DNA of 63,515 nucleotides, filler included, from an uncultured virus (IMG/VR IMGVR_UViG_2049941000_000851) (lineage: Duplodnaviria > Heunggongvirae > Uroviricota > Caudoviricetes). It is 11 parts of one record of this genome, joined end to end, with 100 filler letters (N's around TTAATTAATTAA, not from the genome) between each part and the next. Parts side by side here need not be neighbours in the genome. Positions count along the whole stretch, not along the records: positions 51,319 to 61,651 come from IMGVR_UViG_2049941000_000851; 10 more parts are not named here. One strand, written 5' to 3'. The notes beneath the pieces were generated by a model. The model saw only the letters and a program-made list of their open reading frames with translations, did no database searches and was not told the origin of the DNA. Positions 6,475-61,651 of this stretch are shown here, in pieces. Position 1 is the stretch's first letter. Each line of letters begins with the position of its first letter. The position numbers were made by a program, and so were the translations under genes.

Positions 6475-6484
6475 NNNNNNNNNN

Positions 6485-7327: not shown

Positions 7328-7357
7328 GTTTTTCCTCCTGAACTGTTGCTTATAATC

Positions 7358-8515: not shown

Positions 8516-8539
8516 CCCAACATCCCCACAAATCCGAAT

Positions 8540-13032: not shown

Positions 13033-13045
13033 GTGAGGTTAAATC

Positions 13046-13693: not shown

Positions 13694-14869
13694 ATGATTA
13701 GTGAGGATTCTATTACAAGAATATCACATCTATTCTGTGGGGATGAAGGTGGATATTACTCATACAAAACAGGCCCTAANNNNNNNNNNNNNNNNNNNNN
13801 NNNNNNNNNNNNNNNNNNNNNAGACAAAGCTGAACTGCATCCGGCAAATACTCCATATTATGTCTGAAGTACATAAAAGGGACATTATTCATAGAGATAT
13901 AAGTCCGAACAATGTTTTTATTATATCTGGAATGCTAAAAATTGCTGACTTTGGTCTTGGAAAGGATTTGCAAGTTTTTACGTCCCATCAAACTCTTCAC
14001 ACAAATTCCGTGGGGCAATACTATTATTGTGCTCCGGAACAGTTTATGATGCTTAAGGATGGAGATAAACGTAGTGATGTTTATTCTTTGGGGCGTTTGA
14101 TTAACTTTATCATGACAGGAGATGCCAGAGATTCGCATCATATTTACAGAAGTGTAGCGGAGAAGGCGACCAATTCTGACGCCGCCTATAGATATGCTGA
14201 TGCCAGTCAACTATCTTCATTCTTTGAAAAATCGGTTGAATTTCATGCCCAAGCGGAAAACAGAGAGCGGATTGAGCAAAAAATACGTAGCAGGATATAT
14301 GATGACGATGTAGAAAACTATATTTATGATATGAATCCAGAAAGAATCTCAAAAGCTCTTTTGAATAAACAGCCAGGGTTCGCTGATATGTTGATCTCTT
14401 TTATGCTTGAAAATGACGAGCAANNNNNNNNNNTTTCAATATCATTCTCAAAAAGGACTATCTGATTAGAGATCAAGGCATAACAGAAGTAGTTGCGGCT
14501 GAGTTATCAGAGAAAATAGTAGCAGAGATTAATAGGATTATTCAACAAGATCTTTGCAAGCTTACATTTGCCAGAGGACGCTTTCACTTAATGCGCGAAA
14601 GCGATGATCTTGTGTTCATTGGAAGCGGTGGATTTGCAAACGTATATCGGCAAAAATCCACTGGATTGGTGATAAAAAAGCTTAAAGATGATTTCCTCAC
14701 TGATGCGGGGGTCAGAAGTCGGTTTAAAAGAGAGTATAATATAACCAAATCTTTACAGGGGTCTGTTGGAATAATTCAGGTTTTCACCTTTGATGAAGGT
14801 AACTGTTCCTACAGTATGGAACCAGCGGAAACTACGTTGGAACGCTATGTACTTGACAACCAACTGAAT
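13694..14869 (+). CDS. Ser/Thr protein kinase, contigs out of order
   Basis: IGSGGFANVY, VIKK, HRDISPNN, KIADFGL, APEQ, SDVYSLG; N-terminus MISEDSITRISHLFCGDEGGYYSYKTGP at 13694. Confidence 0.85.
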
Positions 14870-20900: not shown

Positions 20901-21423
20901 CAAATTCCCAGGCATTATTTCCTACAGTTGATATTGCTGGTGGATTATGTTATTTCCTTTGGGACAGCGCGTATAATGGNNNNNNNNNNTGGAAGGAGCA
21001 CCAGAATCCCTAAGGTATTTGGATGAGCATGAGATTTTGATACGCAATAACGCAGCTATCTCCATTATTGAGAAGGTGAAGAGCCATTCCAATGAGTTTT
21101 TAAGCTCGTTAGTAAGTAAACAGCGCCCGTTTGGTTTGCGAACATATGTCCAGCCAGACGAAACAGGAGATCTTTATCTCCGTTGGAGCGGAGGCATTGG
21201 CCCTATATCTTCTCAAAAGGTATCGNNNNNNNNNNNNNNNNNNNNNNNNNNNNNNNNNNNNNNNNNNNNNNNNNNNNNNNNNNNNNNNNNNNNNNNNTCT
21301 TTTGCATTTGTACCGCTGCTTGATTTCACGAAGCAATGGACAGACGCAGAATTATACAAAGCATTTGATTTGAGCGAGAATGAGATTGCACTTATCGAAG
21401 GGTTAATCAAGCCGATAGAGTAA
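17903..21423 (+). CDS. Fused nuclease-SF2 helicase-N6 MTase-TRD restriction enzyme (Eco57I-domain type); N-terminus at 15464-15607
   Basis: LIYVF...LLKIG...EWY (GIY-YIG/T5orf172-like), KMRFGKT, DEAH, NPDKETVLTPW, GNPPYQ. Confidence 0.85.
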
Positions 21424-22409: not shown

Positions 22410-22430
22410 TGGAGTAAAGGAGCTTGCGCA

Positions 22431-24747
22431 ATGGGCATCTATGAGAAAATTAAGACTGATATAGCCCAGCCGTACTATGTCGAGAACTTTCCAAATGAAG
22501 GACAGCGGTTTATCGCCTGGTACCTGCGGAACATTCACAATCTCGATACATATGAGGCGAAAGACTGCATCACAGATGGCCCGGGCGACAAGCAGATAGA
22601 TGCTGTATATATTGATGACCAGACGGAAACCATCTATATCATCCAGGGAAAATACTACAGCAGCGTTTCTGTTAACGCGACACCGCTGCGAGAAGTGCTG
22701 TCTTCGTGGACACAGATTCAGGACTTACAACATCTGCAGGAATCCGCCAATGACCATCTCCGGGCAAAAATTGCTGATATTGCTGATGCGCTTGCTGAGG
22801 GATACGAAGTTTCTTTTGAACTGATTACAACATCCACACTGACGGAAAGTGCCTCGCAGGATCTTGATCTGTTCCAGCGGACACTGTCATCTAATGAAGC
22901 GCTGAACGCAAACATGGTGGTCATCGATGAAGAAACATTACAAGTTCGGTACGATGAAGCGCTGAACAAAAACAGACCGTATATCAACCATGAGTTTTCT
23001 GTCGATCCAGCGCAGTGCCTGCAAATGACACTTGCAGGAACGAAGGTTATAATAGAGGCAATTCCGCTGAAAGAATGTGTCCGGATTCCCGGAATCAAGG
23101 ACGGTACACTGTTCCGGAAAAACGTGCGTCAGTCACTCGGCTCTACCAATAAGGTGAATAAGGGAATCGCGCGCACCATTCGGAAGAATGCGGATGAGTT
23201 CTTCTTTCTGCACAACGGCATCACCGCGATCTGCTCCTCCATGACATTGCATGGAAACATCCTCAGCGTGAAAGAACTGAACATTGTCAACGGTTGTCAG
23301 TCCCTCAGCACGATTTACAGTTGCAGCGAGGCGGCAAAGGCTGCCGGTGATGCCTTTATCATGTTTCGGTTTTACGAAATCAGCGATACCGAACGCGCCG
23401 ATGAAATCAGCACCTCCACAAACTCGCAGAGCGCCGTTAAAGCACGGGATCTCCGCAGCAACGATAAATTCGTTCTTGCTATGAAGAAAGCCTACGAGCG
23501 AGTTTTTCCGTACCTNNNNNNNNNNNNNNNNNNNNNNNNNNNNNNNNNNNNNNNNNNNNNNNNNNNNNNNNNNNNNNNNNNNNNNNNNNNNNNNNNNNNN
23601 NNNNNNNNNNNNNNNNNNNNNNNNNNNNNNNNNNNNNNNNNNNNNNNNNNNNNNNNNNNNNNNNNNNNNNNNNNNNNNNNNNNNNNNNNNNNNNNNNNNN
23701 NNNNNNNNNNNNNNNNNNNNNNNNNNNNNNNNNNNNNNNNNNNNNNNNNNNNNNNNNNNNNNNNNNNNNNNNNNNNNNNNNNNNNNNNNNNNNNNNNNNN
23801 NNNNNNNNNNNNNNNNNNNNNNNNNNNNNNNNNNNNNNNNNNNNNNNNNNNNNNNNNNNNNNNNNNNNNNNNNNNNNNNNNNNNNNNACGTCTCTCGGAA
23901 AATGGCTGATTTCCTGGCATTCACAGAGACCGACGATGGCTTACAGCGAAAATCGTGTGTTTGACGTGTACTTCAATCAGCTATTCCAGCGCGATTATGC
24001 GCCGGAGGATATCCAGGCGCTCAACGAGATTTATAAAGCGGTAGTGCCCTGCTGGGACAGCAACAACACGCATGGAATCAATGAAGCGCTGCTGGCGATA
24101 AAGGCCTATGGCACCTTCCACCAGNNNNNNNNNNGGTCGAGCACGGGTGAAGAAATAATGGTTACACCAGCCAACATTGTTGGTTATAATGATCATGCGG
24201 AAATACTTGAAGCAAGAAAGAAAATTATTACACAAAGGCTGTCAAAACTCAGCAGGCAACTCGAAGTGAAAAAGAAGGCTCAAATACTTGAAGATGAGCA
24301 ATTGTCCTTTTTCACAGCACCAAGTATGTTGGAAATTGCCAGCCAAAATATTGCAAGACTTCCACTCGATGCAATCGCTATTNNNNNNNNNNAATATCTG
24401 TTTTATTCTGCGAAATTAACAAGATGCAGGAACTGGTGCCTCGTCCATCCGTGGTTGTTGAAAAGCTGAATCAAAGCGGGCTGATGGACACCGTTGTTGA
24501 CCTGTCGATCCAATGCCTGAATATTGCGTTTGACACAGCATACGAAAACGCAACCGCAGACGGAAAAGTATTTTCCGCGCAGAACTGGAGCAAGTCAAAG
24601 ACGTCGTTGAAGGATATTCGCGGGCAAATCAAGCAGTATTTGTCATCATTGCGTCTGATGCCCGGTGGAAAGGATGTTCTTGATCAGCTGACCAAAGGTC
24701 TGCAAATGCCTAAGGAGGCATTCGAGAGTCGCTGGAGTGCGGATTGA
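22431..24747 (+). CDS. AIPR family protein (gapped)
   Basis: DGPGDKQIDA, IIQGKY, NVRQSLG, FFFLHNGITAIC, IVNGCQS, TNSQSAV. Confidence 0.88.
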
Positions 24748-29001: not shown

Positions 29002-30357
29002 ACGGCTTGAACGTGAGCCCGCCCAAGATTTCGTCGAATCGTTTTCTTCCGAGAAGCGCCTTCATGGCTGTGATGCCGAGTAGCTTCCTTTCATAGGGGT
29101 CTTCGCCTGCTGCTTTCACCGCGGCTGCCGCGGCTTCTTCGTCGGTGTATTTGGTGACGGATCGTCCCTCGACCAACTTGANNNNNNNNNNNNNNNNNNN
29201 NNNNNNNNNNNNNNNNNNNNNNNNNNNNNNNNNNNNNNNNNNNNNNNNNNNNNNNNNNNNNNNNNNNNNNNNNNNNNNNNNNNNNNNNNNNNNNNNNNNN
29301 NNNNNNNNNNNNNNNNNNNNNNNNNNNNNNNNNNNNNNNNNNNNNNNNNNNNNNNNNNNNNNNNNNNNNNNNNNNNNNNNNNNNNNNNNNNNNNNNNNNN
29401 NNNNNNNNNNNNNNCCGTTTCCGGCAGGTAGCTTTGACACTGCAGAACTGACAGTGCTCCCCGGCGCGGAATTCGCCCTCACCTTTGAAGGCTAACTGTG
29501 CTGTTGGTAAAAGAACAGTCTCTGCCCACCCCAGAAGGTCAGCTTTGCTCATTTCGAAGTTGGTTTCATTTTCCCGTCTCGGCTGAAAGATGCTCATCCT
29601 TATTGTGCGGACATCATAGATTCCGTCATAGGCTTCGAGCAGCCCCAGCGCGTAGCACATCATCTGAGGGTTGTGTTCTGCGCTCACCAGAATGCCGACG
29701 CCGTATTTAAGGTCGATCACCTGAAGAACATCGTCCGCCACGATGCAGGCGTCTCCGGTACCGAAACCCTCCGGAACCCAGCGGGAGAAGTCCAGCCGCT
29801 GTTCCACCAGTACGACGGGATCAGCGCAGTGCTTCTTTGCTTCAGCCAGCTGCTCCATTACAAAGGCGCAGTAGGCATCCGTGCAGTCGGCCATCTCCTG
29901 ATCGAAAAANNNNNNNNNNGCGTTCAAGTATGGGCTGACGGTCGGCGTCCACGATTCCAGGCGCGGTGCTGCTGTTGGCGTTGATNNNNNNNNNNNNNNN
30001 NNNNNNNNNNNNNNNNNNNNNNNNNNNNNTTAATTAATTAANNNNNNNNNNNNNNNNNNNNNNNNNNNNNNNNNNNNNNNNNNNNGCTTCCCTGTGTCAG
30101 GCGCTTCCTGTTCATCAGGCGCGAAGCAGACTTGCACATGGGCCACTGCCCGTATCAACTCTTCTCCGCACCTGACCAGTTGTTTTCCTACTTCATTCAG
30201 GTTGTCCAGTGTCGTTGCCAGTTCGCTCATTTTGCTCATGATTTGACTCCTTTCTCTGTTTTTCCAGTTTCCTTGCCAATCGTTTTGCCACTACGCTGAT
30301 TGCTATTAGCACGTCGATCAGCTCCTGCTCTTCGGCAGCTGTATTTGCCGTGTTCTC
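29002..30357 (-). CDS. Fragments of second-copy early genes: DUF2800, DUF2815 and two small hypotheticals
   Basis: Near-duplicates of 36492-37833 and 39059-39415 (EQRLDFS...GFGTGD...IDLKYG). Confidence 0.75.
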
Positions 30358-31484: not shown

Positions 31485-32087
31485 ATAGCAAATCAAGCTG
31501 GCTTCGATTACCCTGTAACAGCGAATACACTTGCCGAATGGTGGGGTGAAGTAAGAAGATTCTCAACCTACGCTGAGAGAAGGGAATACATCTCCCAGTT
31601 GTTCTCCCCGTTGCTGAAAACCTTGAGTGAATCAGAAAACAACAGTGCCGTTGTGAGTTTTCAGAAGATTGCTACCAGATCTGGAACAATTCAAAAAGCA
31701 GTGGAAGACGCTGAGGTGTTTATTCGAGAAGGGAAATATGATTCCGCGCTGGATCGTGTACACACAGCATCTCATGGATATCTAAGGCAGTTGCTTACAG
31801 AACACGGGATAACATGCGAAGAAGAAGATGGACTTCCAGCTTTGTTTTCAAAGCTTCATGGTTATTATGGCGACTCAATTCAACCATCTGATGTTGGTGA
31901 GCGCGTGAAAGGAATACTGCGAAGTGCTGGTGGCATGATTAATGCAGTTAATGAACTGAGGAATAATAATACGATTGTTCATCCAAACGATCAATTAATT
32001 CAAGCTCGAGAAGCATGGCTTGTTATTCGGATTTTGAACGCAGTGGTTGATTATATAGAGGATGTGGAGAACAGTATAGGAGGTTAA
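31485..32087 (+). CDS. Abortive-infection C-terminal (Abi_C/HEPN-like) protein, 5' truncated
   Basis: ALDRVHTASHGYLR, NELRNNNTIVHPN. Confidence 0.7.
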   Translation: MANQAGFDYPVTANTLAEWWGEVRRFSTYAERREYISQLFSPLLKTLSESENNSAVVSFQKIATRSGTIQKAVEDAEVFIREGKYDSALDRVHTASHGYLRQLLTEHGITCEEEDGLPALFSKLHGYYGDSIQPSDVGERVKGILRSAGGMINAVNELRNNNTIVHPNDQLIQAREAWLVIRILNAVVDYIEDVENSIGG

Positions 32088-32091: not shown

Positions 32092-32877
32092 ATGCCATTC
32101 AAAAATGATATTCCAAATTATAGAGCATATCCGGATAGTGAACTGTATATGCATACGGTACCAGATGATGTGTGGACACCAGTAGAAAGTTTGATTCGCA
32201 AAGCATCTGATAATGCGAATAAATTGAAAGCAGTAATCAATAATATCGCAGAAATCTCTGGTGGGCAGATTACCACAAACTGGGGATGGGACTACCTAGA
32301 AAACGATATTTCCGGCTGCGTGATGTATTTAAGAAAAAAGGTAAATGGTGGGCGAATACAGCATTTCGAAGCCTTTATGGATTGCCTTGCTATTCTACAT
32401 GATGTCGGTTCTTTGGCCTGCGATGCTATCAATGAGTTTCTGGAAGACCATGGGATCGGATATAGGTGTAGCTCGATTCCTGAAGGTAAACTACGATGGA
32501 GCATTGTGGATGGTACAGGTGTGATTGAGGATATTATTACGACACAAGCCAAGATTAGACCATTATCACAGCAGGCCTATGATAGATTCGAAAGTGCTTT
32601 AAGACAGTTTGAGGATATAAATAGGGATGACCGAGTGAGAAAAGATGCTGTAAGATCTTGCGTTGATGCTATGGAGGCATTAATAAAGGAGCTTGGTGGG
32701 GATGATGAAATAGGTGAGGCAACCAAACATCTAAAAGACGAAGTAGACAGTCAAGGGAACCACGCCTGGGGCCCTGCAGAATTGGTGAAAGAAGGTAATA
32801 ATGTTTTTAATCTATTGCATCGCCTTTATCCGGATGTTAGACACGGCACGCAGGATTATAATACTGCTGATATGACC
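32092..32877 (+). CDS. AbiJ-like protein with HEPN-type C-terminus (3' truncated)
   Basis: DAVRSCVDAMEAL ... DVRHG. Confidence 0.55.
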
Positions 32878-32977
32878 NNNNNNNNNNNNNNNNNNNNNNN
32901 NNNNNNNNNNNNNNNNNNNNNTTAATTAATTAANNNNNNNNNNNNNNNNNNNNNNNNNNNNNNNNNNNNNNNNNNNN

Positions 32978-33083
32978 CCCGCAACTAAAAACGATTTCAC
33001 CGTGACGAACACTCTTGAAATTTTCTAATTCGATTCTTGTGATTCTAACTGTCGGAAGTTTATGCCCTTCACGCGGCTTCATA
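32978..33083 (-). CDS. ABC/AAA ATPase N-terminal fragment
   Basis: VRITRIELENFKSV. Confidence 0.5.
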
Positions 33084-33255
33084 TGGCACCTCTCCTCTTG
33101 AAATTCCAAATTGTATTCAAATATTATCACATCTATTGCTGTTTGTCAATCACTTAGTGTAAAATTTGAATATTTTATCCAATTAACACATTTGATGTAT
33201 TGACAACGGTTTATCAATCATATATAATTGCCGACACAATAACGTATCGGAGGTA

Positions 33256-34158: not shown

Positions 34159-34552
34159 GGATGCATTCCATACCATCCACAACTACATCGATACCAATGA
34201 AATGATTCTCAGAAAAGGTGCCATCGCTGCTCATAAAGGTGAAAAGGTACTGATCCCCATCAACATGCGCGACGGGAGTATTCTTGCCATCGGAAAGGGT
34301 AATGAAGACTGGAACTTCTCTGCTCCTCACGGTGCTGGGCGCATCATGTCGCGTACTGCGGCAAAAGAACGCCTTGACATGGAGGAATACCGCAGAGAGA
34401 TGGCCGGTGTGTACACCACGTCAGTCAGTGAGGCCACTCTGGATGAAGCGCCTATGGCTTATAAGTCGCTGGCAGACATCATCGATGTGATCAGTGAGAG
34501 TGTAGACATCATAGAAGTATTGAAACCTATATACAACTTTAAGGCGAACTGA
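34159..34552 (+). CDS. rtcB: RtcB RNA ligase, C-terminal part
   Basis: HNYID, RKGAI, SAPHGAGRIMSR, DEAPMAYK. Confidence 0.92.
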
Positions 34553-34887: not shown

Positions 34888-34961
34888 GACCCCTTCGACT
34901 AACAGGTCAGGTCACCGCCCTTTCAAGGCGGCAATGCTCGGTTCGAATCCGGCAGGGGCCA
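34888..34961 (+). tRNA. tRNA-Glu(TTC), imperfect
   Basis: Anticodon arm CCGCC-CTTTCAA-GGCGG, TTCGAAT loop; A:C mismatch in acceptor stem, irregular T stem. Confidence 0.75.
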
Positions 34962-34970
34962 TTACAGTAT

Positions 34971-35044
34971 AGTTCCGTAGTGAAGTTGGCTATCACGCCT
35001 GCCTGTCACGCAGGAGATCGTGGGTTCGAGCCCCGTCGGAACTG
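34971..35044 (+). tRNA. tRNA-Asp(GTC)
   Basis: AGTTCCG/CGGAACT acceptor, CCTGC-CTGTCAC-GCAGG, G discriminator. Confidence 0.88.
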
Positions 35045-35050
35045 GAATAT

Positions 35051-35123
35051 GCGTCTTTAGCTCAGTTGGAAGAGCATCGCACTTTTAATGCGAGGGTCCG
35101 GAGTCCGAGCCTCCGAAGGCGCA
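35051..35123 (+). tRNA. tRNA-Lys(TTT), atypical T loop
   Basis: GCGTCTT/AAGGCGC acceptor, TCGCA-CTTTTAA-TGCGA; T loop TCCGAGC. Confidence 0.8.
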
Positions 35124-35131
35124 CTGGTTAT

Positions 35132-35209
35132 GGTGCAGGTAGCTCAGTTGATTAGAGCGCCGGGTTGTGGCCCCGGAGGTCAGCGGTTCGAATCCGCTCT
35201 TGCACCCCA
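35132..35209 (+). tRNA. tRNA-His(GTG) with G-1 and encoded CCA
   Basis: G-GTGCAGG/CTTGCAC-C-CCA, CCGGG-TTGTGGC-CCCGG. Confidence 0.9.
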
Positions 35210-36491: not shown

Positions 36492-37754
36492 TCAAAATCG
36501 TTTTTCGCTGTAGTCATGGCCGGACGCTTGTCNNNNNNNNNNNNNNNNNNNNNNNNGATAGTGCGTGCCTGAGACTGCCTGCCGCAGCGCATACTCCTTC
36601 ACGTCACCGCCCCACGCGATCAGCTCATCGATCCGGGGCAGGATTGCGGCGATCTCGTCATTGGTGAGTTCGGACGGAACCTCAAAGTCATACCGGGCCA
36701 TCTCCAGGTTGTACTCCGTNNNNNNNNNNNNNNNNNNNNNNNNNNNNNNNNNNNNNNNNNNNNNNNNNNNNNNNNNNNNNNNNNNNNNNNNNNNNNNNNN
36801 NNNNNNNNNNNNNNNNNNNNNNNNNNNNNNNNNNNNNNNNNNNNNNNNNNNNNNNNNNNNNNNNNNNNNNNNNNNNNNNNNNNNNNNNNNNNNNNNNNNN
36901 NNNNNNNNNNNNNNNNNNNNNNNNNNNNNNNNNNNNNNNNNNNNNNNNNNNNNNNNNNNNNNNNNNNNNNNNNNNNNNNNNNNNNNNNNNNNNNNNNNNN
37001 NNNNNNNNNNNNNNNNNNNNNNNNNNNNNNNNNNNNNNNNNNNNNNNNNNNNNNNNNNNNNNNNNNNNNNNNNNNNNNNNNNNNNNNNNNNNNNNNNNNN
37101 NNNNNNNNNNNNNNNNNNNNNNNNNNNNNNNNNNNNNNNNNNNNNNNNNNNNNNNNNNNNNNNNNNNAAGGCTAACTGTGCTGTTGGTAGAAGAACAGTC
37201 TCTGCCCACTTCAGTAGGTCAGCCTTGCTCATTTCGAAGGTAGATACACTTTCCCGTCTCGGCTGAAAGATGCTCATCCTTATCGTGCGGACATCATAGA
37301 TTCCGTCGAAGGCTTCCAGGAGGCCCAATGTGTAGCACATCATTTGCGGATTGCGTTCTGCGCTCACCAGGATGCCTACACCGTATTTCAGGTCAATCAC
37401 GTGAAGCACATCGTCCGCCACGATGCAGGTATCCCCGGTTCCGAAACCTTCAGGCACCCAGCGGGAGAAGTCCAGCCGCTGTTCCACCAGTACGATGGGA
37501 TCGGCGCAGTGCTTCTTTGCTTCAGCCAGCTGCTCCATCACAAAGGCGCAGTAGGCATCCGTGCAGTCGGCCATCTCCTGATCGAAAAACTCCAGGCTCC
37601 CGGTCAGGTCTTTTGCGTCCATGCCCAGAGCCTTCATCACCTTATAAGCGGCAAGGCTGTGTGCTTCCGTGCCCTGCTGGGCATAAGGCGATGTTCTGTC
37701 AGGATGCGCCGCGCAGAGTTTTGCGCTGGGCGGGCAGGCCAGCCAGCGATGGCT
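36492..37754 (-). CDS. DUF2800 (Cas4/RecB-like) nuclease, gapped
   Basis: WLACP, EQRLDFS, GFGTGD, IDLKYG, NPQMMCY. Confidence 0.85.
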   Translation of the reverse strand, partial: SHRWLACPPSAKLCAAHPDRTSPYAQQGTEAHSLAAYKVMKALGMDAKDLTGSLEFFDQEMADCTDAYCAFVMEQLAEAKKHCADPIVLVEQRLDFSRWVPEGFGTGDTCIVADDVLHVIDLKYGVGILVSAERNPQMMCYTLGLLEAFDGIYDVRTIRMSIFQPRRESVSTFEMSKADLLKWAETVLLPTAQLAXXXXXXXXXXXXXXXXXXXXXXXXXXXXXXXXXXXXXXXXXXXXXXXXXXXXXXXXXXXXXXXXXXXXXXXXXXXXXXXXXXXXXXXXXXXXXXXXXXXXXXXXXXXXXXXXXXXXXXXXXXXXXXXXXXXXXXXXXXXXXXXXXXXXXXTEYNLEMARYDFEVPSELTNDEIAAILPRIDELIAWGGDVKEYALRQAVSGTHYXXXXXXXXXQASGHDYSEKRF

Positions 37755-49151: not shown

Positions 49152-50220
49152 NAAGACACATTGAAATTGCGTGTTCGCCGCGATCATGTGATGTATGATA
49201 AATGGGAAAAGCTGGGGTTCCTGCATACGACAGAAGGCAATGTGGTGCATTACGGGTTCATAGAGCAGTACATCCTTCAGCTGGGCGAACGGTTCAACAT
49301 CCGGGAGATCGCCTACGATCGCTGGAACGCCGCGATGATGGTGCAGGCGTTGGAAGACGANNNNNNNNNNNNNNNNNNNNNNNNNNNNNNNNNNNNNNNN
49401 NNNNNNNNNNNNNNNNNNNNNNNNNNNNNNNNNNNNNNNNNNNNNNNNNNNNNNNNNNNNNNNNNNNNNNNNNNNNNNNNNNNNNNNNNNNNNNNNNNNN
49501 NNNNNNNNNNNNNNNNNNNNNNNNNNNNNNNNNNNNNNNNNNNNNNNNNNNNNNNNNNNNNNNNNNNNNNNNNNNNNNNNNNNNNNNNNNNNNNNNNNNN
49601 NNNNNNNNNNNNNNNNNNNNNNNNNNNNNNNNNNNNNNNNNNNNNNNNNNNNNNNNNNNNCTCAGTTCCTGGAGACCCGGAAATTCCAGGTAGAGGAAAT
49701 CTGCCGAATCTACCGTGTTCCGCCGCATATGATCGGGGATCTGGAGCACGCTACTTTCTCGAACATCGAGCATGTGCGACCGGAAATGTCGCTACTGAAA
49801 AGCAAACTAAGGTANNNNNNNNNNTCTCAAGTACCAGCGACCTGACCGCTATGGTGCTGGTGTTCCCGCCAGTGGACAATGATGATAAATACATCATCGT
49901 ACCCCACTTCTGGCTACCGAAAGATACGCTGAAGCTCAGGGTGCGGCGGGATCACGTGATGTACGATAAATGGGAAAAGCTGGGTTTCCTGCATACGACC
50001 GAAGGCAATGTGGTGCATTACGGCTTCATAGAACAGTATATCCTTCAGCTCGGCGAGCGGTTCAACATACGGGAGATCGCCTACGACCGCTGGAACGCCG
50101 CCATGATGGTGCAGGCACTGCAGGATGACGGTTTCACCATGGTTCCGTTNNNNNNNNNNCATGAAGAGTCAAGGTGGCGAATCCGTCTACAATGAAAGAG
50201 GATTTCTTGTCCTCGGATAG
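49152..50220 (+). CDS. Terminase large subunit, nuclease-domain fragments from two alleles
   Basis: SSTSDLTA, PHFWLP, EIAYDRWNA; ends SVYNERGFLVLG* at 50220. Confidence 0.88.
49661..49814 (+). mobile_element. Second portal allele with group II intron 5' junction at 49774
   Basis: FSNIEH then GTGCGACCGGAAATGTCG..., 41 nt identical to 52546 onward. Confidence 0.9.
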
Positions 50221-50228
50221 GAGGTATC

Positions 50229-50506
50229 ATGCCGAACAAACCGAAACGACCCTGCCGCTATCCCGGTTGTCCGGGTTTCTGCGAGCAGGGCCAGGTATTC
50301 TGCAAGGAGCACATGGCTTGGAGCAGTGACCGGCTGCGCGGCGGAGCGGATGCCCGCGGGTATGACGCCCGTTGGCGAACGGCGAGGAAGCGGTTTCTGC
50401 GCTATCACCCGCTGTGCGTGGAGTGCATGAAGAAGAACAAACTGACTCCTGCAACGGTGGTCGATCACATCATTCCGCACAGAGGAGACCAAGGTCTGTT
50501 TTGGGA
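50229..50506 (+). CDS. Terminase-associated HNH endonuclease
   Basis: PCRYPGC, RGYDARW, PLCVEC, VVDHIIPHRGD. Confidence 0.9.
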
Positions 50507-50516
50507 NNNNNNNNNN

Positions 50517-50976
50517 GCTCAAGGTACTTGAAGGCGACAGGGGCAAAGGCAGGCGGCCGTTGAACAGGGATGAGCCGGTCCCACCCCAGAATGATATCAA
50601 ATGCCCGGACTGGCTGCTGCCCGAGGCAAAAAAAGAATGGAAGCGCCTGGCGTCCTCGCTGATCGCGATGGGCGTGCTGACCGAGCATGACATGGAAGCC
50701 TTTGCAGGATATTGTCAGGCATACGCGAGATGGCGTGAAGCAGAGGAGTTCCTGTCCCAGCACGGGACCATTTTTAAGACGCCTTCCGGTTATGTGCAGC
50801 AGGTACCGCAGGTCAGTATTGCTATGCAGAACCTGAAAATCATGCAGTCGTTTTGCTCGGAGTTTGGGCTGACCCCGGCGTCGCGTGCAAGGTTGTATGC
50901 GAACGCTGGAGATCAGAACACCGAGGACGATCCCATGGAGCAGGTGTTCAGCGGAGGCTGGCGGGATGTTCAGTGA
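50517..50976 (+). CDS. Terminase small subunit, P27 family
   Basis: CPDWLLPEAKKEW, YCQAY, EFGLTPASR. Confidence 0.92.
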
Positions 50977-51218
50977 AGCCAAGGCCCGCCGGGTCACGCA
51001 GTTCATTGAGTGCCTGAAACACACCAAAGGCGAATTCCACGGAAAGCCTTTTAAGCTGCTGCCCTGGCAGGAAAAGATCATAAGGGATGTATTTGGCACG
51101 GTTCGGGACGAGGATCCTACCATGCGGCAGTATAACACCGCATACATAGAAATCCCCAAAAAGAACGGTAAAAGTGAGCTGGGCGCAGCCGTCGCGCTCA
51201 ATATGCTCTGCAACGACG
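50966..51218 (+). CDS. Terminase large subunit N-terminus, no intein at Walker A
   Basis: LLPWQ, EIPKKNGKSEL. Confidence 0.92.
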
Positions 51219-51319
51219 NNNNNNNNNNNNNNNNNNNNNNNNNNNNNNNNNNNNNNNNNNNNTTAATTAATTAANNNNNNNNNNNNNNNNNNNNNNNNNN
51301 NNNNNNNNNNNNNNNNNNA

Positions 51320-51983
51320 CAGCGAAGAGATGCGAAAAGCCATACAGCTGCTGGACGAAGTGAAAGAAAGTATCATAAACGCCTACCAAATCAAGACGGG
51401 TCTGAGCCGTGCAAAGCTCTCTCACCTCATGGACAGCGAGACCTGGATGAACGCGAAGAAGGCGAAAGAGCTTGGCTTCTGCGACGAGATCCTGTATACC
51501 GGAGAAAACGAACTGCCTGACGAGGTGTCGGGCTTTTCTTTTGGCCGCAGAGCAGCGGCCGCCTGTCTCATGAACCGGGTGATTGCCGCGCTGCCCAAGC
51601 TAGAACCCGAGCATCCGCCCGATCCTGAACCCATCCCCGAACCACAATCCGAACCTACACCTGAACCAATACCCGACAATCGGGTGAAAGCGGCGGACCT
51701 TGAGAAGAGGCTGTCGCTTTTGAAATAAAAACAAGGAGAAAAACGATATGAATCAGATCCTTACATTGCGCGAAAAGCGCGCCAATCTGTGGAACGAGAC
51801 CAAGGCTTTCCTGGACAGCCACCGCGGCGAGGACGGCATGGTCTCCGCTGAAGACAACGCTACCTACGAAAAGATGGAGGCTGACGTCGTAGCGCTCGGC
51901 AAAGAGATCGAGCGCCTGGAACGCCAAGCCGCCATTGACCGTGAACTTGACCAGCCAACCGCGTCGCCGCTGGTCTCCCGGCC
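51320..51983 (+). CDS. Clp head protease C-terminus and capsid N-terminus of a more distant phage
   Basis: MDSETWMNAKKAKELGFCDEI; MNQILTLREKRANLW. Confidence 0.8.
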
Positions 51984-51993
51984 NNNNNNNNNN

Positions 51994-54900
51994 CGGGCAG
52001 ACTGTGCTGCTGGCTCCAGAAGAGGTGCTTCACATCCCCGGCCTCGGTTTCGACGGCGTTATGGGCTACAGTCCCATCGCGCTGGAAAAGAACGCTATCG
52101 GCCTGGGCATCGCTTCTGAGGAATATGGCAGTAAGTTCTTCTCCAACGGCGCGCGGCCTTCCGGTAGGCGCAGCCTACTACTTCATTTTGCATCCATATA
52201 TACTCAACACACTTGATTGGTTGGCAAACAACCTTGCGTTTTCATTCGTGATCGGCTATTTCTTNNNNNNNNNNTCCTTCCGGTATCCTGACGCACCCGA
52301 ACACGGTCAAGAATCCAAAAGCGCTCAGGGAGAGCTGGAACGCGGCTTACGGTGGTTCGTCCAATGCCAACCGCGTGGCAATCCTCGAAGAAGGGATGCG
52401 CTTCGAACCCATCGCGATCCCCAACAACGAAGCGCAGTTTCTCGAGACCCGGAAGTTTCAGGTGGACGAGATCTGCCGCATATTTCGTGTACCTCCGCAT
52501 CTCGTGGGCGATCTGGAGCACGCTACGTTTTCGAACATCGAGCACGTGCGACCGGAAATGTCGCTACTGAAAAGCAAACTAAGGTAATGCGCCGCACATC
52601 AGAGCGGCAGTCAACCTGCCTCACCGCAAGGCGAAAGCCGGATGCAGAGCAATCTGCTGCGGGAACATAGCACGGCAGGAAAGCGGATAACGCGAAAGGA
52701 TATTCAGCGAACAAGGTCCGCAATGACAAAGAAGCATAAGGATAAGGCTGGATTGCCAAAGCAAAGGTTCGTCCCTCTTATGTTGAGGATGCGGAAATTA
52801 TCCTGAAACCGCATTTGTGGCAAACCATGGATACGGTGTTCGTCCATGGGTCTGATAAATAAACGCCACATGACACGCACGAGATTGTGATGAAAGAACC
52901 AAAATGCTATCCGACAGCTTCTACACCTATCAGTAGCGGTAACCGGTGATGACCTAAATGGGCATGCCGCCACAAAGGCGGCTATGGCAGAGGTCTGAAT
53001 AGCCCACATGGTTACGGAACACCCATAGTAGTCTGAGATGGGTAACGCCCATTACATGGCGAAGGGGTGTAGTAAATTCATTCCAAAATGGGAAGATGAA
53101 GGGGAGGAGAAACCTCAATGAATCCAACATCAGAAGTTTTGGAGCGTATCAACAGGAGTTCCAATCAACATCATGATGGGGTCTTCACAAGGCTCTATCG
53201 CTATCTTCTGAGGGAAGATATCTACTATGCGGCTTACCAAAAGCTGTACAGTAACAAGGGTTCAGTAACCAAAGGGGTCGATGATGATACGGCAGATGGA
53301 TTCGGGGACGAATACGTTGCGTCAATCATCGAAGACCTGAAGAACGAAACATTTAAGCCCAAGCCGGTCAGGAGAAAGTATATCCTGAAAGCCAATGGAA
53401 AGCAACGCCCGCTGGGGATTCCATCCTTCCGGGACAAGTTGGTACAGGAAGCGGTCAGAATGATACTGGAAGCTATCTATGAGCCTGTGTTCTACGACCA
53501 GTCTCATGGCTTCCGGCCTAATCGGAGTTGCCACACGGCCTTGAAACAGATCAAGATTGATTTTCATGGCGCAAAATGGTTCATAGAGGGCGACATCAGA
53601 GGATGCTTTGATAACATTAACCACAATGTACTCATTGCTACCCTGGGGAAGAAGATAAAGGACAGTAAATTCCTGAATCTTATAAGGTTATTCCTGAAAG
53701 CTGGGTATGTGGAGGACTTTGAATATCATTCCACGATATCGGGAACTCCACAAGGAGGAATTATTTCTCCCATACTGGCCAATATCTACCTGCATGAACT
53801 GGATGCTAAGGTGATGGAAATCAAAGCCGGTTTCGACTGCCCTTCATCCCGAAGCCAAACGAAGGAATACGTGCATCTGCACACAATAAAGCAGACGTTA
53901 CGGAAGAAAATCGGCGTGGCACAGGGAGAAGAACGGGAAGAATTAATCCGCCAATACAAGGAAGCGGACAAGGCAATGAAATCTACCCCCGCCAAGTGTC
54001 AGGACGATAAGAAGATCGTCTATGTGCGCTATGCGGATGATTTCCTGATCGGCGTTTTCGGATCCCGCAAGGATGCAGAAAGCATAAAGGCCGCTCTGAA
54101 GCAGTTCCTTGCGGATGAATATACGTTGGAACTGAGTGAAGAGAAAACGAAGATCACGCACACGTCGGAACGCGTCCGATTCCTCGGATACGATATAGCG
54201 GTGCGTAGAGACCAAACCTTAAAACGTAGAAAAGACGGAAGAACAGGCAGAACCCTCCTGAACACCGTCGAGTTGACTGCACCCCTCGAAGATAAGGTAA
54301 CAAAGTATCTGTTTGCCCATGAGTTGGTAGCACAGACGCCAGAGGGCAAAATCATACCGATTTCCGTCCCGAGACTGCGCTATCTCCCAGAGGCAGATAT
54401 CGTCAGAAGTTTTGATGCGCAATTCAGAGGTATTTGCAATTATTACCGTCTGGCGGCAAATTACGACAGGCTGATTTTCCTCCAATACATCATGGAATAC
54501 AGCTGTCTGAAAACTTTGGCATCTAAGTTCGACACCACCATCTCAAAGCTGATTAAGAAATATCGGATTAAGGGTGGGTGGGGAATCCCCTACAAGACCA
54601 GAAAAGGTGAAGGGATTGCGAAGATGTCGAAGTTGGCGGACTGTCGTAACGGGAAGCTTTGTATTGATGTTAATCCCTGGTCTTATGTTTCCTACAGAGA
54701 TGGCGCTCTTTCAATACAGAAAAGGCTCTCAACTCACACATGCGAGCTTTGCGGAACGTACTGTGAGCATGTGAAAGTATACCATGCAGGCAGCATGAAG
54801 GAGCTTGATCTGGCTACGCCGTGGGGAGCGAAGATGAAGGCTATTCGGCGCAAAACGCTGGTAGTCTGCGGTGATTGCTATGAACGCATTCACAGNNNNN

Positions 54901-55534
54901 NNNNNNNNNNNNNNNNNNNNNNNNNNNNNNNNNNNNNNNNNNNNNNNNNNNNNNNNNNNNNNNNNNNNNNNNNNNNNNNNNNNNNNNNNNNNNNNNNNNN
55001 NNNNNNNNNNNNNNNNNNNNNNNNNNNNNNNNNNNNNNNNNNNNNNNNNNNNNNNNNNNNNNNNNNNNNNNNNNNNNNNNNNNNNNNNNNNNNNNNNNNN
55101 NNNNNNNNNNNNNNNNNNNNNNNTCCGGTTCTGGAGGGGGTATACGCAAACCTATCGTCGTAAGGCGATAAGGCGGCATGTACCTACCTCACCAGTCCAT
55201 TGATTTCGCCGTGCACTGCATACGGCCATGGCTTGTACGAATCGAACAGTCCATAAACCGGGCGCTCTTTTCCGAACAGGAGAAAGGGCGTTTCTATTGT
55301 CAGTTCAATCTTGACGGACTCATGCGCGGCTCATATAAGGAGCGCATGGAAGGTTATGCAATAGGTCGTCAAAACGGCTTTCTGTCCGCCAACGACATCC
55401 GGCGACTGGAGAATCAGAATCCGATCCCGGCGTCTGAGGGTGGCGATGCCTATCTCGTGAACGGGAATATGCTTGCAATTTCAACCATACTCCAAAACCG
55501 GAGCAAAGAACAGAAATCAGGTGATAACAATTGA
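51994..55534 (+). CDS. HK97-family portal protein interrupted by a group II intron (other 3' exon allele at 58324-58657)
   Basis: EVLHI...GYSPI, FFSNGARPSG, ICRIFRVPPHL, FSNIEH|QSIDFAVHCIRPW. Confidence 0.92.
52546..55192 (+). mobile_element. Group IIA (Ll.LtrB-like) intron
   Basis: 5' GTGCG, 3' CCTACCTCAC, D5/D6 at 55124-55192, EBS2 52780-52784, EBS1 52836-52841. Confidence 0.95.
53118..54895 (+). CDS. ltrA: Intron-encoded RT/maturase with C-terminal En-like domain (stop in gap; about 598 aa judged from copy 2)
   Basis: FTRLYRYLLREDIY, RPLGIP, GTPQGGIISP, RYADD, CELCG...TLVVC. Confidence 0.95.
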
Positions 55535-56376
55535 GAGAAATACAACTAAACGGCTACATCGACGATGAGGTGTGGTTCGGTGATGAGATTACGCCGGATG
55601 CGCTGCACGATCTGTTGTATGCCGAGCGCAAGGACAGGACGGATGATGTTCATATCAGGCTCAACTCCTATGGCGGTTCCTGCAATGCAGCCGTCCGCAT
55701 GCATGATGACCTGGTGGCTTATCCGGGAAAGGTGACCATCACGGTCTCGGGCACGGCTGCCTCCGCTGCTACAGTACTGTGCATGGCTGCGGACAGGCTG
55801 GAGATGACGCCGGGTTCGCTTTGGATGATCCACGATCCATCGATCATAGCTATGGGCAATATCCTCGACCTGAAAGACGCGATCCGTCTTTTGGAAGTCT
55901 GTAAGGAATCCATCCTGAATGTCTATGAGCGTCGCATCAAGATTACCCGTGAACAGGCCGGAACGCTCATGGCAAAGACCACCTGGATGGATGCACAGAA
56001 GGCGCTTGAAGACGGCTTTATCGATGAAATCCTGAGTGTGCGACAGGCAGGCCCAAGCGATTGTGTCGTTTCACAGGCCGATGCCGAAAAGAAAGTGACT
56101 GCGTGGCTGGACAGGCACAGAATCAGCGCGTCGGCAATCGTGGAACGTCCGCATAGGAAGGCCGGAGTGCTCACGGAGACGGATGCGTCGCCCAAGCCAA
56201 CGGTGGCGGACGAAGAAGCTTCTGCTCCGTTGGACGACGACAATAACAACAGCGAACACAACAGCGATGAACCCAACCCCATGCCACAAGGTACCCCAAT
56301 CAGTCAGCTGCAGAAGCGGCTGGCTTTAATTATGCCCTCAGAGGCGAAACGAAAAGGAGAAGACACCCATGAGTAA
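55531..56376 (+). CDS. ClpP-like head maturation protease (second allele from 58654)
   Basis: LNSYGG, AASAAT, MIHDP, TWMDAQKALEDGFIDEI. Confidence 0.92.
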   Translation: MREIQLNGYIDDEVWFGDEITPDALHDLLYAERKDRTDDVHIRLNSYGGSCNAAVRMHDDLVAYPGKVTITVSGTAASAATVLCMAADRLEMTPGSLWMIHDPSIIAMGNILDLKDAIRLLEVCKESILNVYERRIKITREQAGTLMAKTTWMDAQKALEDGFIDEILSVRQAGPSDCVVSQADAEKKVTAWLDRHRISASAIVERPHRKAGVLTETDASPKPTVADEEASAPLDDDNNNSEHNSDEPNPMPQGTPISQLQKRLALIMPSEAKRKGEDTHE

Positions 56377-57571
56377 GATCCAGGACATGAGAATCAAGCG
56401 CGGCGAGATCTGGGACCAGGCAAAAGCCTTCCTCGACGCGCACCAGGACGAGAACGGCGTCATGAGCGCCGAAGACACCCAGACCTATGAGAAAATGGAA
56501 CAGGATGTGGTCGATCTCGGCCACGCCATCGACCGGCTCGAACGTGCGGAGCAGATGGACAGGGAGATGAACGTCGACGCTGTCAATCCCGCTCTCGTAG
56601 GCAGGCCCGAAAAACCGGACCGTCAGGATACCCGCCGAGGTATTGCCAGCGACGCCTACAAGAAGGCGTTCTGGGCACAGCTGCGCGGCCGCACGTCCTA
56701 CGAGATCCGTGATGCCCTGCAGGTGGGCGAGCTGTCCGAGGGCGGCTATACTGTTCCGAATGAGTTTGAGCACCAGCTGGTAGAAGCGCTGCAAGAAGAG
56801 AACATCATGCGTGGGCTGGTGCACGTGATCACCACGGCGTCGGGTGACCGGAAGATCCCGCTGGTGACGAATTATGGCAACGCCAGCTGGGTCGAAGAGG
56901 AGAATCCGATCCCCGAGACGGATGTGGCATTCGGGCAGGTCTCCCTGGGCGCACATAAGCTGGCTACCGCCATCCGCATTAGCCAGGAATTGCTCCAGGA
57001 CTCCGCCTTCGATATGGCATCGTTCATCACCCACGAGTTCCAGCGCAGGGCCGGCGCAGCGGAAGAAGAGGCCATCATCTCCGGCGACGGCTCCCACAAG
57101 CCCATTGGCTTGCTGCACGCCACGCTGGGCGCGCAGGTGGGTGTGACCACCGCGTCCTCCACGGCGATCACCGCAGATGAGATGATCGACCTGCAGCACA
57201 GTCTGAAGAGCGGCTACCGCAGAAAGGCCGCGTTCATCATGAACGACGCCGCCATCAAGGCGCTGCGCAAGCTGAAGGACGGACAAGGACAGTATCTGTG
57301 GCAGCCCTCCATCCGGGAAGGCGTACCGGACATGATCCTGAACACCCGGGTATATATGTCGAACTATATGCCCCTAGTGGAAGCGGGCAACAAAGTGGTA
57401 CTGTACGGCGACTACAGCTACTACTGGCTGGCCGACCGTGCAGGCAGGACCCTGCAGCGGCTGAACGAACTGTATGCCATGACCGATCAGATCGGCTTTA
57501 AACTGACGGAGCGTCTTGATGGACGCCTGATTCTGCCCGAAGCCGTGAAGGTCCTGCAGATGAAAGCGTAA
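56369..57571 (+). CDS. HK97-fold major capsid protein
   Basis: EGGYTVP, ISQELLQDS, LKDGQGQYLWQP, GDYSYY, RLDG. Confidence 0.95.
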   Translation: MSKIQDMRIKRGEIWDQAKAFLDAHQDENGVMSAEDTQTYEKMEQDVVDLGHAIDRLERAEQMDREMNVDAVNPALVGRPEKPDRQDTRRGIASDAYKKAFWAQLRGRTSYEIRDALQVGELSEGGYTVPNEFEHQLVEALQEENIMRGLVHVITTASGDRKIPLVTNYGNASWVEEENPIPETDVAFGQVSLGAHKLATAIRISQELLQDSAFDMASFITHEFQRRAGAAEEEAIISGDGSHKPIGLLHATLGAQVGVTTASSTAITADEMIDLQHSLKSGYRRKAAFIMNDAAIKALRKLKDGQGQYLWQPSIREGVPDMILNTRVYMSNYMPLVEAGNKVVLYGDYSYYWLADRAGRTLQRLNELYAMTDQIGFKLTERLDGRLILPEAVKVLQMKA

Positions 57572-57801
57572 GTACCTGAGAGAGAAATGTGAGGCGGGCC
57601 AGTCAGCATAAGGCCGGTCCGCCGGAAAGGAAAAAGAAATGCCCAATACACACATCACGAAAAACTATGCCGCACATGGCGGAGACGAGTGGGTCATCGG
57701 CGGGAAACTCACCTTCCTCGAAGGCGCGANNNNNNNNNNTGAGGGAGGAATTAATGGCGAACCGGTCAGCATAAAGCCGGTTCGCCGGAAAGGGAAAAGA
57801 T

Positions 57802-58156: not shown

Positions 58157-59447
58157 NNNNNNNNNNGGATGATGTGTACGACCATTATCCCGCCGACCGG
58201 CTGATGGTGGACATCCCCATCGCCCTGATGGCTGTGCAGACGGCGACGACAGAGGCCCTGTCCGAATTCCCTATGAAGCCGACAGCGACGGAAACGAAGA
58301 GCGACTGACGCTGNNNNNNNNNNCGATTTTGCGGTGCATTGCATACGGCCGTGGCTGGTACGAATTGAACAGTCTATAAACAGAGCGCTCTTTTCGGAAA
58401 AGGAAAAAGGGCGCTTTTACTGTCAATTCAATCTGGACGGGCTGATGCGCGGTTCATATAAGGAGCGTATGGAGGGCTATGCCATTGGACGGCAAAACGG
58501 TTTCCTGTCCGCTAACGACATCAGACGATTGGAGAATCAGAACCCGATCCCGGCATCAGAGGGAGGAGATGCTTACCTCGTGAATGGGAACATGCTTGCC
58601 ATATCAACCATACTTTCCAACGGGAGTAAAGAACAGAAATCAGGTGATAACAATTGAGAGAAATACAACTAAATGGCTACATAGACGATGAGGTGTGGTT
58701 CGGCGATGAGATCACGCCGGACGCACTTCATGATTTGCTGTATGCCGAAACCAAGGATCACACCGAGGATGTGCATATACGCCTGAACTCTTACGGGGGT
58801 TCGTGCAACGCGGCTGTACGAATGCACGATGATCTGGCGGCGTATCCCGGAAAGGTGATCATAACCATCTCAGGCACGGCTGCTTCCGCGGCGACGGTAT
58901 TTTGCATGGCTGCGGATCAACTGGAAATGACGCCCGGGTCGCTGTGGATGATCCACGATCCGTCCATCATTGCAATGGGCAACGTGCATGACCTGAAGGA
59001 TGCCATCCATTTGCTCGAGGCTTGCAAGNNNNNNNNNNNNNNNNNNNNNNNNNNNNNNNNNNNNNNNNNNNNNNNNNNNNNNNNNNNNNNNNNNNNNNNN
59101 NNNNNNNNNNNNNNNNNNNNNNNNNNNNNNNNNNNNNNNNNNNNNNNNNNNNNNNNNNNNNNNNNNNNNNNNNNNNNNNNNNNNNNNNNNNNNNNNNNNN
59201 NNNNNNNNNNNNNNNNNNNNNNNNNNNNNNNNNNNNNNNNNNNNNNNNNNNNNNNNNNNNNNNNNNNNNNNNNNNNNNNNNNNNNNNNNNNNNNNNNNNN
59301 NNNNNNNNNNNNNNNNNNNNNNNNNNNNNNNNNNNNNNNNNNNNNNNNNNNNNNNNNNNNNNNNNNNNNNNNNNNNNNNNNNNNNNNNNNNNNNNNNNNN
59401 NNNNNNNNNNNNNNNNNNNNNNNNNNNNNNNNNNNNCTTTAAAGACT

Positions 59448-61269: not shown

Positions 61270-61651
61270 CTGGGGAATTCCTTATAAAACCAGAAAAGGT
61301 GAAGGAATTGCGAAAATGTCGAAGTTGGCAGACTGTCGTAACGGGAAGCTTTGTATTGATGTAAATCCCTGGTCTTATGTTTCCTACAGAGATGGCGCTC
61401 TCTCAATACAGAAAAGGCTCTCAACTCACACATGCGAACTTTGCGGAACGTACTGCGAGCATGTGAAAGTATACCATGCAGGCAGCATGAAGGAGCTGGA
61501 TCTGGCTACGCCGTGGGGAACAAAGATGAAGGCTATCCGGCGCAAAACGCTGGTAGTCTGCGGTGATTGCTATGAACGCATTCACAGGGGAAACTCTAAA
61601 AACTGATATGTCAAGAATTTATGGGGAGCCGGATACCTCGAGAGGGGTAAG
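61270..61651 (+). mobile_element. 3' part of a second group II intron copy (IEP end and D5)
   Basis: Differs from 54580-54895 mostly at synonymous sites; GAGCCGGATACCTCGAGAGGGGTAAG domain 5. Confidence 0.9.

Follow-up and report, generated by a model that had tools for sequence, protein, structure and literature searches.

A probable group IIA intron of the Ll.LtrB lineage in the portal gene of a Heliusvirales-like prophage

The portal is the one protein that all phage DNA must pass, and an interruption of its gene raises the question of how a working portal could still be made. This question is posed by a stretch of 63,515 nucleotides (nt), here called the window, from the uncultured Caudoviricetes virus IMGVR_UViG_2049941000_000851, in which the coding sequence of an HK97-type portal breaks off after the codons for FSNIEH and resumes further downstream with those for QSIDF. 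Our answer is that positions 52546-55192 are very probably a bona fide group IIA intron of the Ll.LtrB lineage, mobile and probably still active, inserted between the H and Q codons of the conserved ...FSNIEH/QSIDF... in the portal gene of a Heliusvirales-like prophage whose host is of the gut Clostridia type. As a IIA intron of the portal gene, the element is cleanly defined; phages were believed to lack group II introns until 2025 (PMC12350094).

Read on the + strand over 52528-55200, the locus runs ...TTT TCG AAC ATC GAG CAC / GTGCGACC ... CCTACCTCAC / CAG TCC ATT GAT TTC. The original prediction claimed that excising 52546-55192 restores FSNIEH/QSIDF in phase 0, and reading the sequence confirms it. 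The upstream half (52276..52545, +; 90 codons ending ...FSNIEH, on a contig that begins within the portal gene) matches Pfam Phage_portal PF04860 over profile positions 160-251 of 321 (E 2.4e-33). The downstream half (55193..55534, +; QSIDFAVHC... to the stop, with 113 codons over 55193-55531 and a 3′ end that overlaps the start of the protease gene) matches positions 252-321 (E 5.4e-22), so the two halves abut to the residue. On the NCBIfam profile TIGR01537 (portal_HK97), exon 1 covers positions 174-263 and exon 2 positions 265-342, each half alone scoring below the whole-protein cut-off of 112 bits. A tblastn search of the window with the 437-residue portal of PV036454.1 matched residues 208-297 and 297-393 to the exon halves. 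Judged from a profile match that continues across the junction, the host gene is an HK97-type portal (PF04860/TIGR01537).

Intron-less versions of the gene were sought by tblastn of both exon halves against 50,697 phage records. In PV036454.1 the halves are directly adjacent (32619-32888 and 32889-33176, the site lying between 32888 and 32889), with 84% and 77% amino acid identity to the window exons, and in PV036419.1 they are likewise contiguous. Both are Christensenellales phages of Ca. Heliusvirales.

The stretch between the exons has ends that fit the group II rule (5′ GUGYG, 3′ AY). It begins GTGCG (52546-50) and ends ...CAC on the + strand, and its domains I-IV align to those of Ll.LtrB and three relatives; its 5′ 572 nt are 71% identical to the intron of L009, a contig from a Ruminococcus metagenome-assembled genome (MAG). 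The written length includes an N run, and the intron itself probably measures about 2.48 kb. Comparison with the Rfam group II models, proposed as a check on the original prediction, gives truncated matches to RF00029 on the visible pieces. The 3′ half of domain V (55124-31) and domain VI, together at 55124..55192 (+), match model positions 29-77 of 77 (19.9 bits, E 0.026); the match is below the gathering score of 40 and stops exactly at the intron end, 55192. The 5′ half of domain V, with GAGCC, is seen in a second copy at 61624-61651 (model 1-28, 18.7 bits, E 0.052). Domain VI (55132-55192) has a minimum-free-energy fold of -27.8 kcal/mol (z -5.18, with 0 of 200 shuffles as good), and its lone unpaired A is 55186, seven bases before the intron end and so at the distance of 7-8 nt expected of a branch point.

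At gathering scores, Rfam reported four tRNAs and no group II family over the whole window, and in E-value mode over 52400-55300 it reported just four chance matches resembling small nucleolar or long non-coding RNAs (E 1.6-9.1). The lack of a group II match is explained by the N run, which hides half of domain V, and by the D1-D4 models, which miss the lineage; they gave no match even in L001, the Ll.LtrB copy. Full RF00029 matches above the gathering score were obtained in 4 of 4 relatives scanned (L009, L003, L010 and L001). A blastn search with the intron against the phage collection returned five records, none covering at least 80% of the query and none in a portal.

The intron carries a readable code for its target. 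Upstream of the junction lie the intron-binding sites (IBS), at 52534..52545 (+): IBS2 AACAT at 52534-38 (-12 to -8), an unpaired C at -7, and IBS1 GAGCAC at 52540-45. The exon-binding sites (EBS) lie within the intron on the same strand. EBS2 ATGTT (52780..52784) occupies the loop of a CCTC/GAGG hairpin, and the delta G (52835) and EBS1 GTGTTC (52836-41), together at 52835..52841, occupy an 11-nt loop on a 7-bp stem (52825-31/52843-49). All the pairings claimed in the original prediction were recovered: EBS1-IBS1 with 6 of 6 pairs, one of them G.U, EBS2-IBS2 with 5 of 5, and the delta G with the first C of the 3′ exon (55193). The stems it had named, CCATGGA/TCCATGG and CCTC/GAGG, are present, and in both folded hairpins the EBS loop stays open. 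By chance, all 12 pairs are satisfied at 3 of the 109,376 N-free positions of the window, both strands counted. In an alignment to Ll.LtrB (L001, whose intron starts at 2041), the same columns hold the EBS2 loop and the 7-bp stem carrying the delta-EBS1 loop in both introns. In IIA introns, delta lies directly 5′ of EBS1 and pairs with position +1, whereas IIB and IIC introns instead use an EBS3 located elsewhere; by its sequence, the window intron, with delta next to EBS1 and pairing with +1, has the IIA arrangement.

The same columns were then applied to an alignment of the 5′ 570-650 nt of 17 introns, these being the window intron and 16 relatives with a 5′ boundary in the available DNA; L004, L016-L018 and L020-L022 (5′ boundary not found), L014 (a fragment), L002, and L058 (found later) were excluded. 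With its own IBS1, EBS1 makes a mean of 5.53 out of 6 pairs, whereas the mean over 270 cross-combinations is 2.83; for EBS2 the corresponding means are 4.59 out of 5 with its own exon and 2.38 over 268 cross-combinations. Imperfect pairing was seen for EBS1 in L005 and L026 (4 of 6 each) and for EBS2 in L012 (3 of 5). The delta-delta′ pair forms in all 15 introns with both boundaries known (L011 and L025, whose 3′ boundary was not located, were excluded) and takes five pair types; the rate in cross-combinations is 54%.

Portal homologs, which the original prediction had proposed to search, include occupied sites as well as the empty ones above. The empty site of PV036454.1 keeps IBS2 AACAT, IBS1 GAACAT and the +1 C, so full pairing with the window intron is expected. 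L009, whose intron-encoded protein (IEP) is the closest in the genome collection (69% identical), carries its intron at the identical point of a portal (...GDLEHATFSNIEH/GTGCG), behind an intact exon-1 frame of about 300 codons (Pfam profile 2-251). A degenerate scan for the junction (FSNIEH codons followed by GTGCG) gave 0 matches in viral contigs and 12 in metagenome contigs, 11 of them chance matches in unrelated frames and one real. The real one is L058, an 82.5-kb metagenome contig with a portal-intron junction and an IEP 68% identical to that of the window. Both L009 and L058 have the insertion point ...ATFSNIEH/GTGCG and a 3′ exon starting CAATC..., and both have EBS1 GTGTTC and EBS2 ATGTT. 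Their portal exons 1 are 69% (L009) and 59% (L058) identical to that of the window, and their synonymous exon changes (GAACAT, GAGCAT, AATAT) are absorbed as G.U or A-U pairs. The shared EBS1 and EBS2 support the earlier idea that the intron is adapted to the portal gene. The L058 intron (3219-5700) keeps domains V and VI, and its IEP ends at 542 residues, short of the HNH domain; this copy may no longer be capable of endonuclease-dependent mobility. With empty sites, three further occupied alleles (counting the second one in the window, described below) and exon changes tolerated as wobble pairs, the locus supplies natural controls.

The portal of L009 holds a second group II intron of another class (5445-8190), 28 nt past the first. 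It matches Rfam group-II-D1D4-5 with 153 bits (5513-5722) and RF00029 at 8096-8180, and across the two introns the exon stays in frame (QSLEFVKYT / LDPWLVRWEQ).

Within the window intron, an open reading frame at 53118..54895 (+) encodes an IEP with reverse transcriptase (RT), maturase (X) and the start of an HNH endonuclease domain (Pfam RVT_1, Intron_maturas2 and AI2M-like_HNH). The frame runs for 592 codons without a stop as far as the N run and has YADD at residue 305. Residues 1-590 align to residues 1-593 of LtrA, the protein of Ll.LtrB (PDB 5g2x; E 3.9e-185), and identity to LtrA of plasmid pAH82 is 49%. The RT could in principle belong to another element lying beside portal fragments, such as a retron, a diversity-generating retroelement, an RT of abortive-infection (Abi) or DRT defence, or a ribozyme-less group-II-like RT, and weak secondary NCBIfam matches to models of Drt3a, retron and Drt2 RTs, all far below their cut-offs, would fit this. 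We give such an origin practically no credence: the match to LtrA is full length and includes the maturase X domain, the element has a GTGCG 5′ end, domain V and VI matches and covarying EBS, IBS and delta pairings, and its exact excision restores the portal frame. For practical purposes the idea of another RT element is already refuted.

A second, similarly interrupted portal allele was found as three pieces by comparing the window with itself. The first piece (49663..49814, +; gaps on both sides) has the tail of a second, diverged portal exon 1 (49663-49773, ...FSNIEH) and, behind it, the opening 41 nt of the same intron (49774-49814); 90 of 111 exon nt and all 41 intron nt are identical to the first copy. 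The second (58324..58657, +; Pfam Phage_portal profile 256-321) is a second portal exon 2 from its 10th base on, followed by a second protease gene. Its contig begins 9 bases past the insertion site, and 280 of 330 nt are identical to the first copy, with three amino acid changes. The third (61271..61651, +) encodes the C-terminus of a second IEP, with HNH domain and stop (to 61606; Pfam AI2M-like_HNH 1.9e-9), and then the 5′ half of domain V at the contig end; 302 of 317 nt are identical to 54579-54895.

By the Nei-Gojobori method, the portal exons of the two alleles differ by a synonymous divergence (dS) of 1.29-1.57 with a ratio of non-synonymous to synonymous divergence (omega) of 0.014-0.038. 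The IEP C-termini differ by a dS of 0.24 with an omega of 0.017, from 14 synonymous changes and one non-synonymous. These ratios are a signature of purifying selection on both portal exons and the IEP, and the dS values make the intron copies about five times younger than their host genes. The simplest reading of the sequences is that the intron homed into at least one allele after the phages diverged, and that the IEP is still needed; gene conversion between the copies, or two strains merged in one bin, are possible alternatives. The comparison within the window suggests, then, that the intron moved between two diverged phages.

The window is a non-contiguous chain of short scaffolds, with 7,722 N in 91 runs and 92 sequence pieces in 63.5 kb; the scaffold linkers have the form 44-N/TTAATTAATTAA/44-N, and there are many 10-N gaps besides. 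One N run falls within the intron, after the visible IEP frame and before the 3′ half of domain V. A scaffold opens at 51319-51993 with the C-terminus of a second ClpP protease and the N-terminus of a capsid protein, and a 10-N gap separates these from the middle of the portal. A capsid N-terminus before the portal middle is an impossible order for one head module, so the pieces of two related prophages must be interleaved. Another scaffold (49153-51218) carries the second portal-intron junction and then TerL and TerS fragments. Phage replication genes include a DUF2800 nuclease at both 29415-29909 and 37170-37754, together with a PolA fragment and an Enc34-type single-stranded DNA-binding protein; the duplication again points to two related prophages.

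Such an assembly invites the suspicion that the portal halves, or the 5′ and 3′ parts of the intron, come from different loci or copies and were mis-scaffolded. The scaffolds are short, the gaps many and one of them internal to the intron, the portal occurs as two alleles and the intron in at least two copies, and neighbouring joins are visibly wrong. Nevertheless, we consider an artefact very improbable. Each exon-intron junction lies within one ungapped piece (52275-54895, exon 1 and 2,350 nt of intron; 55124-57729, 69 nt of intron and exon 2), and both junctions fall at the same codon (Pfam 251/252). Swapped pieces would change little, both alleles having the intron at the site, and the arrangement is complete on the ungapped contigs of L009 and L058. 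The gap is also bridged in public data. Runs labelled bovine gut metagenome, which may be the source sample of the window, contain 76-82% of the sampled words from 52276-54895, and in run X1 a single 395-letter contig covers 54639-54895 and then 74 letters from 55124, thereby crossing the N run to the intron 3′ end. By arithmetic it leaves about 64 letters in the gap, against 228 as written, in agreement with the length of the second copy.

If the element is an active intron, expression of the portal would proceed as follows. The late operon would be transcribed through the intron, and the IEP would be translated from domain IV and bind the intron RNA as its maturase. The bulged A 55186 would attack the 5′ splice site, held in place by the EBS1/IBS1 and EBS2/IBS2 pairings, and the exons would then be ligated, with a predicted spliced junction of ...AACATCGAGCAC/CAGTCCATT.... 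Full-length portal, and hence a head that can be filled, would come from the spliced mRNA only. That particle assembly depends on splicing follows logically from the structure of the gene; splicing itself we infer. Portal alleles without the intron but with the 12-nt pairing site preserved would be targets for reverse splicing by the excised particle of lariat and IEP; HNH would nick the bottom strand there, and the RT would copy the intron in. Such retrohoming would explain a near-identical intron in two diverged portal alleles.

Public RNA data show intron-like sequence. Contigs of X19, a bovine-gut metatranscriptome, are 99-100% identical to 52802-53091, in the domain I-IV region of the intron, and X16 matches 52584-53125 at 96%; no X19 contig at 99-100% identity lies over the portal exons. 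What these contigs show is only that intron-like sequence is present in the two libraries. The X19 pattern would fit a stable excised intron RNA, or alternatively DNA carry-over. Two candidate splice products were rejected. At 52544/52545, where some contigs depart from exon 1, their sequence runs on into diverged portal alleles that lack the intron (...QSIDFVVHTL...) and that are present in a DNA run as well, and an apparent 105-nt skip at 52686-52792 (X19, X21) has 108 other letters in its place, which marks a replaced sub-domain in relatives.

Several observations weigh against an active intron in a functional portal gene. No contig in three RNA libraries joins 52545 to 55193, contigs being unable to show absence. 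The IEP scores 298.7 bits on TIGR04416, just below the 300-bit cut-off, on a reading frame truncated by the gap. In the first copy, the 5′ half of domain V lies under N, and the intactness of the catalytic core is read across from the second copy. Residues 1-153 of the reference portal are unmatched within the window, where the gene is therefore incomplete, and the piece for residues 154-214 sits behind a gap and runs, after ...ARPSG, into 95 nt of non-portal sequence. The prophage could thus be defective for other reasons, although the incompleteness of the portal may be a matter of assembly. The scaffold order is unreliable, the capsid N-terminus being joined onto the portal middle; the two alleles may represent two strains binned together and not one cell; and X1 may be the window's own source sample, in which case its bridging contig is not independent support.

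Taken together, part of this evidence would suit a dead insertion, in which the intron retrohomed into a now-defective prophage and no longer splices, leaving the portal a pseudogene. The absent portal N-terminus, the unrelated 95 nt that end its middle piece and the lack of spliced RNA are all as such a history predicts; the shortened L058 protein, without HNH, shows that decay occurs in the lineage, and a paper on Clostridium clostridioforme prophages reads such insertions as gene disruptions (PMC11318856). We nevertheless regard a dead insertion as unlikely. The exons are in frame and under strong purifying selection, as is the IEP, which is open for its whole visible length and retains YADD; the 12 target pairs and the bulged A of domain VI are in place, both halves of domain V look intact, and a fragmentary assembly accounts more simply for the missing portal parts. 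An intron that is probably still active thus remains the preferred reading.

The 95 nt after ...ARPSG (52170-52264) gave a best Rfam match of E 8.8 and no blastn match in the phage collection, and the next piece resumes the portal at the same PSG codons. A 9-nt target-site duplication (CCTTCCGGT) was considered here and is better read as the same PSG codons in two contigs; we claim no insertion sequence. The stretch may mark the border of a further insertion in one portal allele, or a point at which the assembly branches.

The interrupted genes of the intron's relatives were typed by Pfam on 26 flanking reading frames. The three with IEPs 63-69% identical interrupt head genes: a portal (L009), a major capsid gene (L010) and a ClpP-type prohead protease gene (L003). 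At about 50-54% identity, the interrupted genes encode VirB4/TraG-like ATPases (L011, L025, L004, L016 and L017), coupling proteins (L022 and L026), Amidase_2 (L012 and L013) and serine recombinases (L015 and L019), and at 49% Ll.LtrB itself (L001) interrupts a relaxase gene; for L005-7, L023 and L024 the flanks gave no family match. An IQ-TREE phylogeny of 26 IEPs groups the window protein with those of L009, L003 and L010 in a clade (support 100/100) that is sister (99/95) to the VirB4-borne pair L011/L025. The tree was midpoint-rooted for drawing only, and L003 and L010 are on long branches. The statement in the original prediction that Ll.LtrB relatives sit in relaxase and conjugation genes holds for the wider family and fails for the nearest kin, which are in phage head genes.

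A speculative scenario, which we offer tentatively and think rather doubtful as a whole, is that a sub-lineage left conjugative elements and specialised on the HK97-type head module (portal, prohead protease and major capsid) of temperate phages of gut Clostridia. It would retrohome between related phages sharing a cell, its ribonucleoprotein, by cutting intron-less alleles, could act as a weapon of phage against phage, and IEP-dependent splicing could serve as a checkpoint on late genes. The rest of this module stands directly downstream of the window portal on the + strand, with a ClpP-type prohead protease gene at 55531-56376 (Pfam CLP_protease 2.4e-27) and an HK97-type major capsid gene at 56369-57571 (Pfam Phage_capsid 2.1e-81).

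Three pairs of near-identical or identical IEPs occur in differently labelled contigs. L012 and L013, from an Eubacteriaceae MAG and a 'Bathyarchaeota' MAG, both lie in an Amidase_2 gene; L002 and L023 come from a Heliusvirales phage and a Bacillota MAG; and L004 and L017 are an IMG/VR contig and a Ruminococcus genome. Such sharing suggests bin contamination or very recent spread. L002 (PV036457.1, 3660-6400) and L005-L007 have an Ll.LtrB-like intron, with an IEP 49-51% identical to that of the window, in a gut-phage tail module. The L002-type intron is located between a tail protein gene and the tape-measure gene; in the L002 annotation its IEP is called a 'reverse transcriptase', and small hypothetical reading frames are placed over the ribozyme on the opposite strand.

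Elsewhere in the window, a cluster of four tRNAs (34888-35206, +; 47-65 bits) lies beside an RtcB ligase fragment (34160-34549). Many fragments of defence-type genes occur over 5024-32084. These are an MmeI-like fragment (5024-5464), type I restriction-modification S and M subunits (7361-9484), Shedu SduA_C (13043-13672), a protein kinase (13824-14423), a ResIII helicase (17905-20322), an Eco57I-type methylase (20336-20977), AIPR (22410-23513) and Abi_C (31485-32084).

An intron-split portal also has consequences for the curation of phage genomes, in which such genes may be lost or mis-called as pseudogenes. The curation of Ca. Heliusvirales set genomes with split markers apart as a separate class, which was not recovered by re-calling genes under alternative codes, and the word 'intron' is absent from that paper (PMC11283538). 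The short readable target code and LtrA-like protein could further make the window intron a candidate for targetron-type tools in gut Clostridia.

Group II introns move by reverse splicing and reverse transcription, whereas group I introns, another ribozyme class, rely on a DNA-level homing endonuclease. Group I introns are spliced in capsid and tail genes of Cluster J Mycobacteriophages (PMC3706429), and in these, as would be the case here, a self-splicing intron sits in an essential virion gene, so that virions need splicing. For group II introns, the nearest precedent is the survey of Merk, Jones and Eddy (Nucleic Acids Res 2025; PMC12350094), which reports 20 in isolate phages, three of them IIA, with structural and packaging hosts that include a minor tail protein and TerL, and matches in 9,229 IMG/VR contigs; splicing is untried there too. 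Like the window intron, those introns interrupt conserved phage genes, their boundaries are fixed by intron-less homologues, and EBS/IBS and delta pairings are given as support. The Rfam D1-D4 models used in the survey miss the window lineage. As far as the text available goes, 'portal' has 0 occurrences in its main text and supplementary file, and its Results do not discuss the host genes of the 9,229 contigs; no group II intron in a portal gene came up in full-text literature searches of open-access papers and bioRxiv. What goes beyond the survey is a single site occupied in two alleles with evidence that the intron was transferred recently, and a clade whose members all interrupt head genes.

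The closest experimentally known system is Ll.LtrB of L. lactis, the compared copy of which lies in the relaxase gene of pAH82. Its LtrA protein and the window IEP share an RT-X-(D)-HNH architecture that aligns over the full length. The two introns have the same ends (GTGCG ... CAC), the same placement of IBS2 (-12 to -8), IBS1 (-6 to -1) and delta′ (+1), and the same domain VI motifs with a branch A. At the nucleotide level the ribozymes are too diverged for blastn except in the domain IVa region (77% over 112 nt), and the distal positions recognised by LtrA (T-23, G-21 and A-20 in the 5′ exon, and T+5) are not present at the window site. Splicing and mobility have been demonstrated for Ll.LtrB, whereas those of the window intron we infer from its sequence. 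The two differ also in the gene they interrupt, which is a conjugative relaxase for Ll.LtrB and a phage portal for the window intron.

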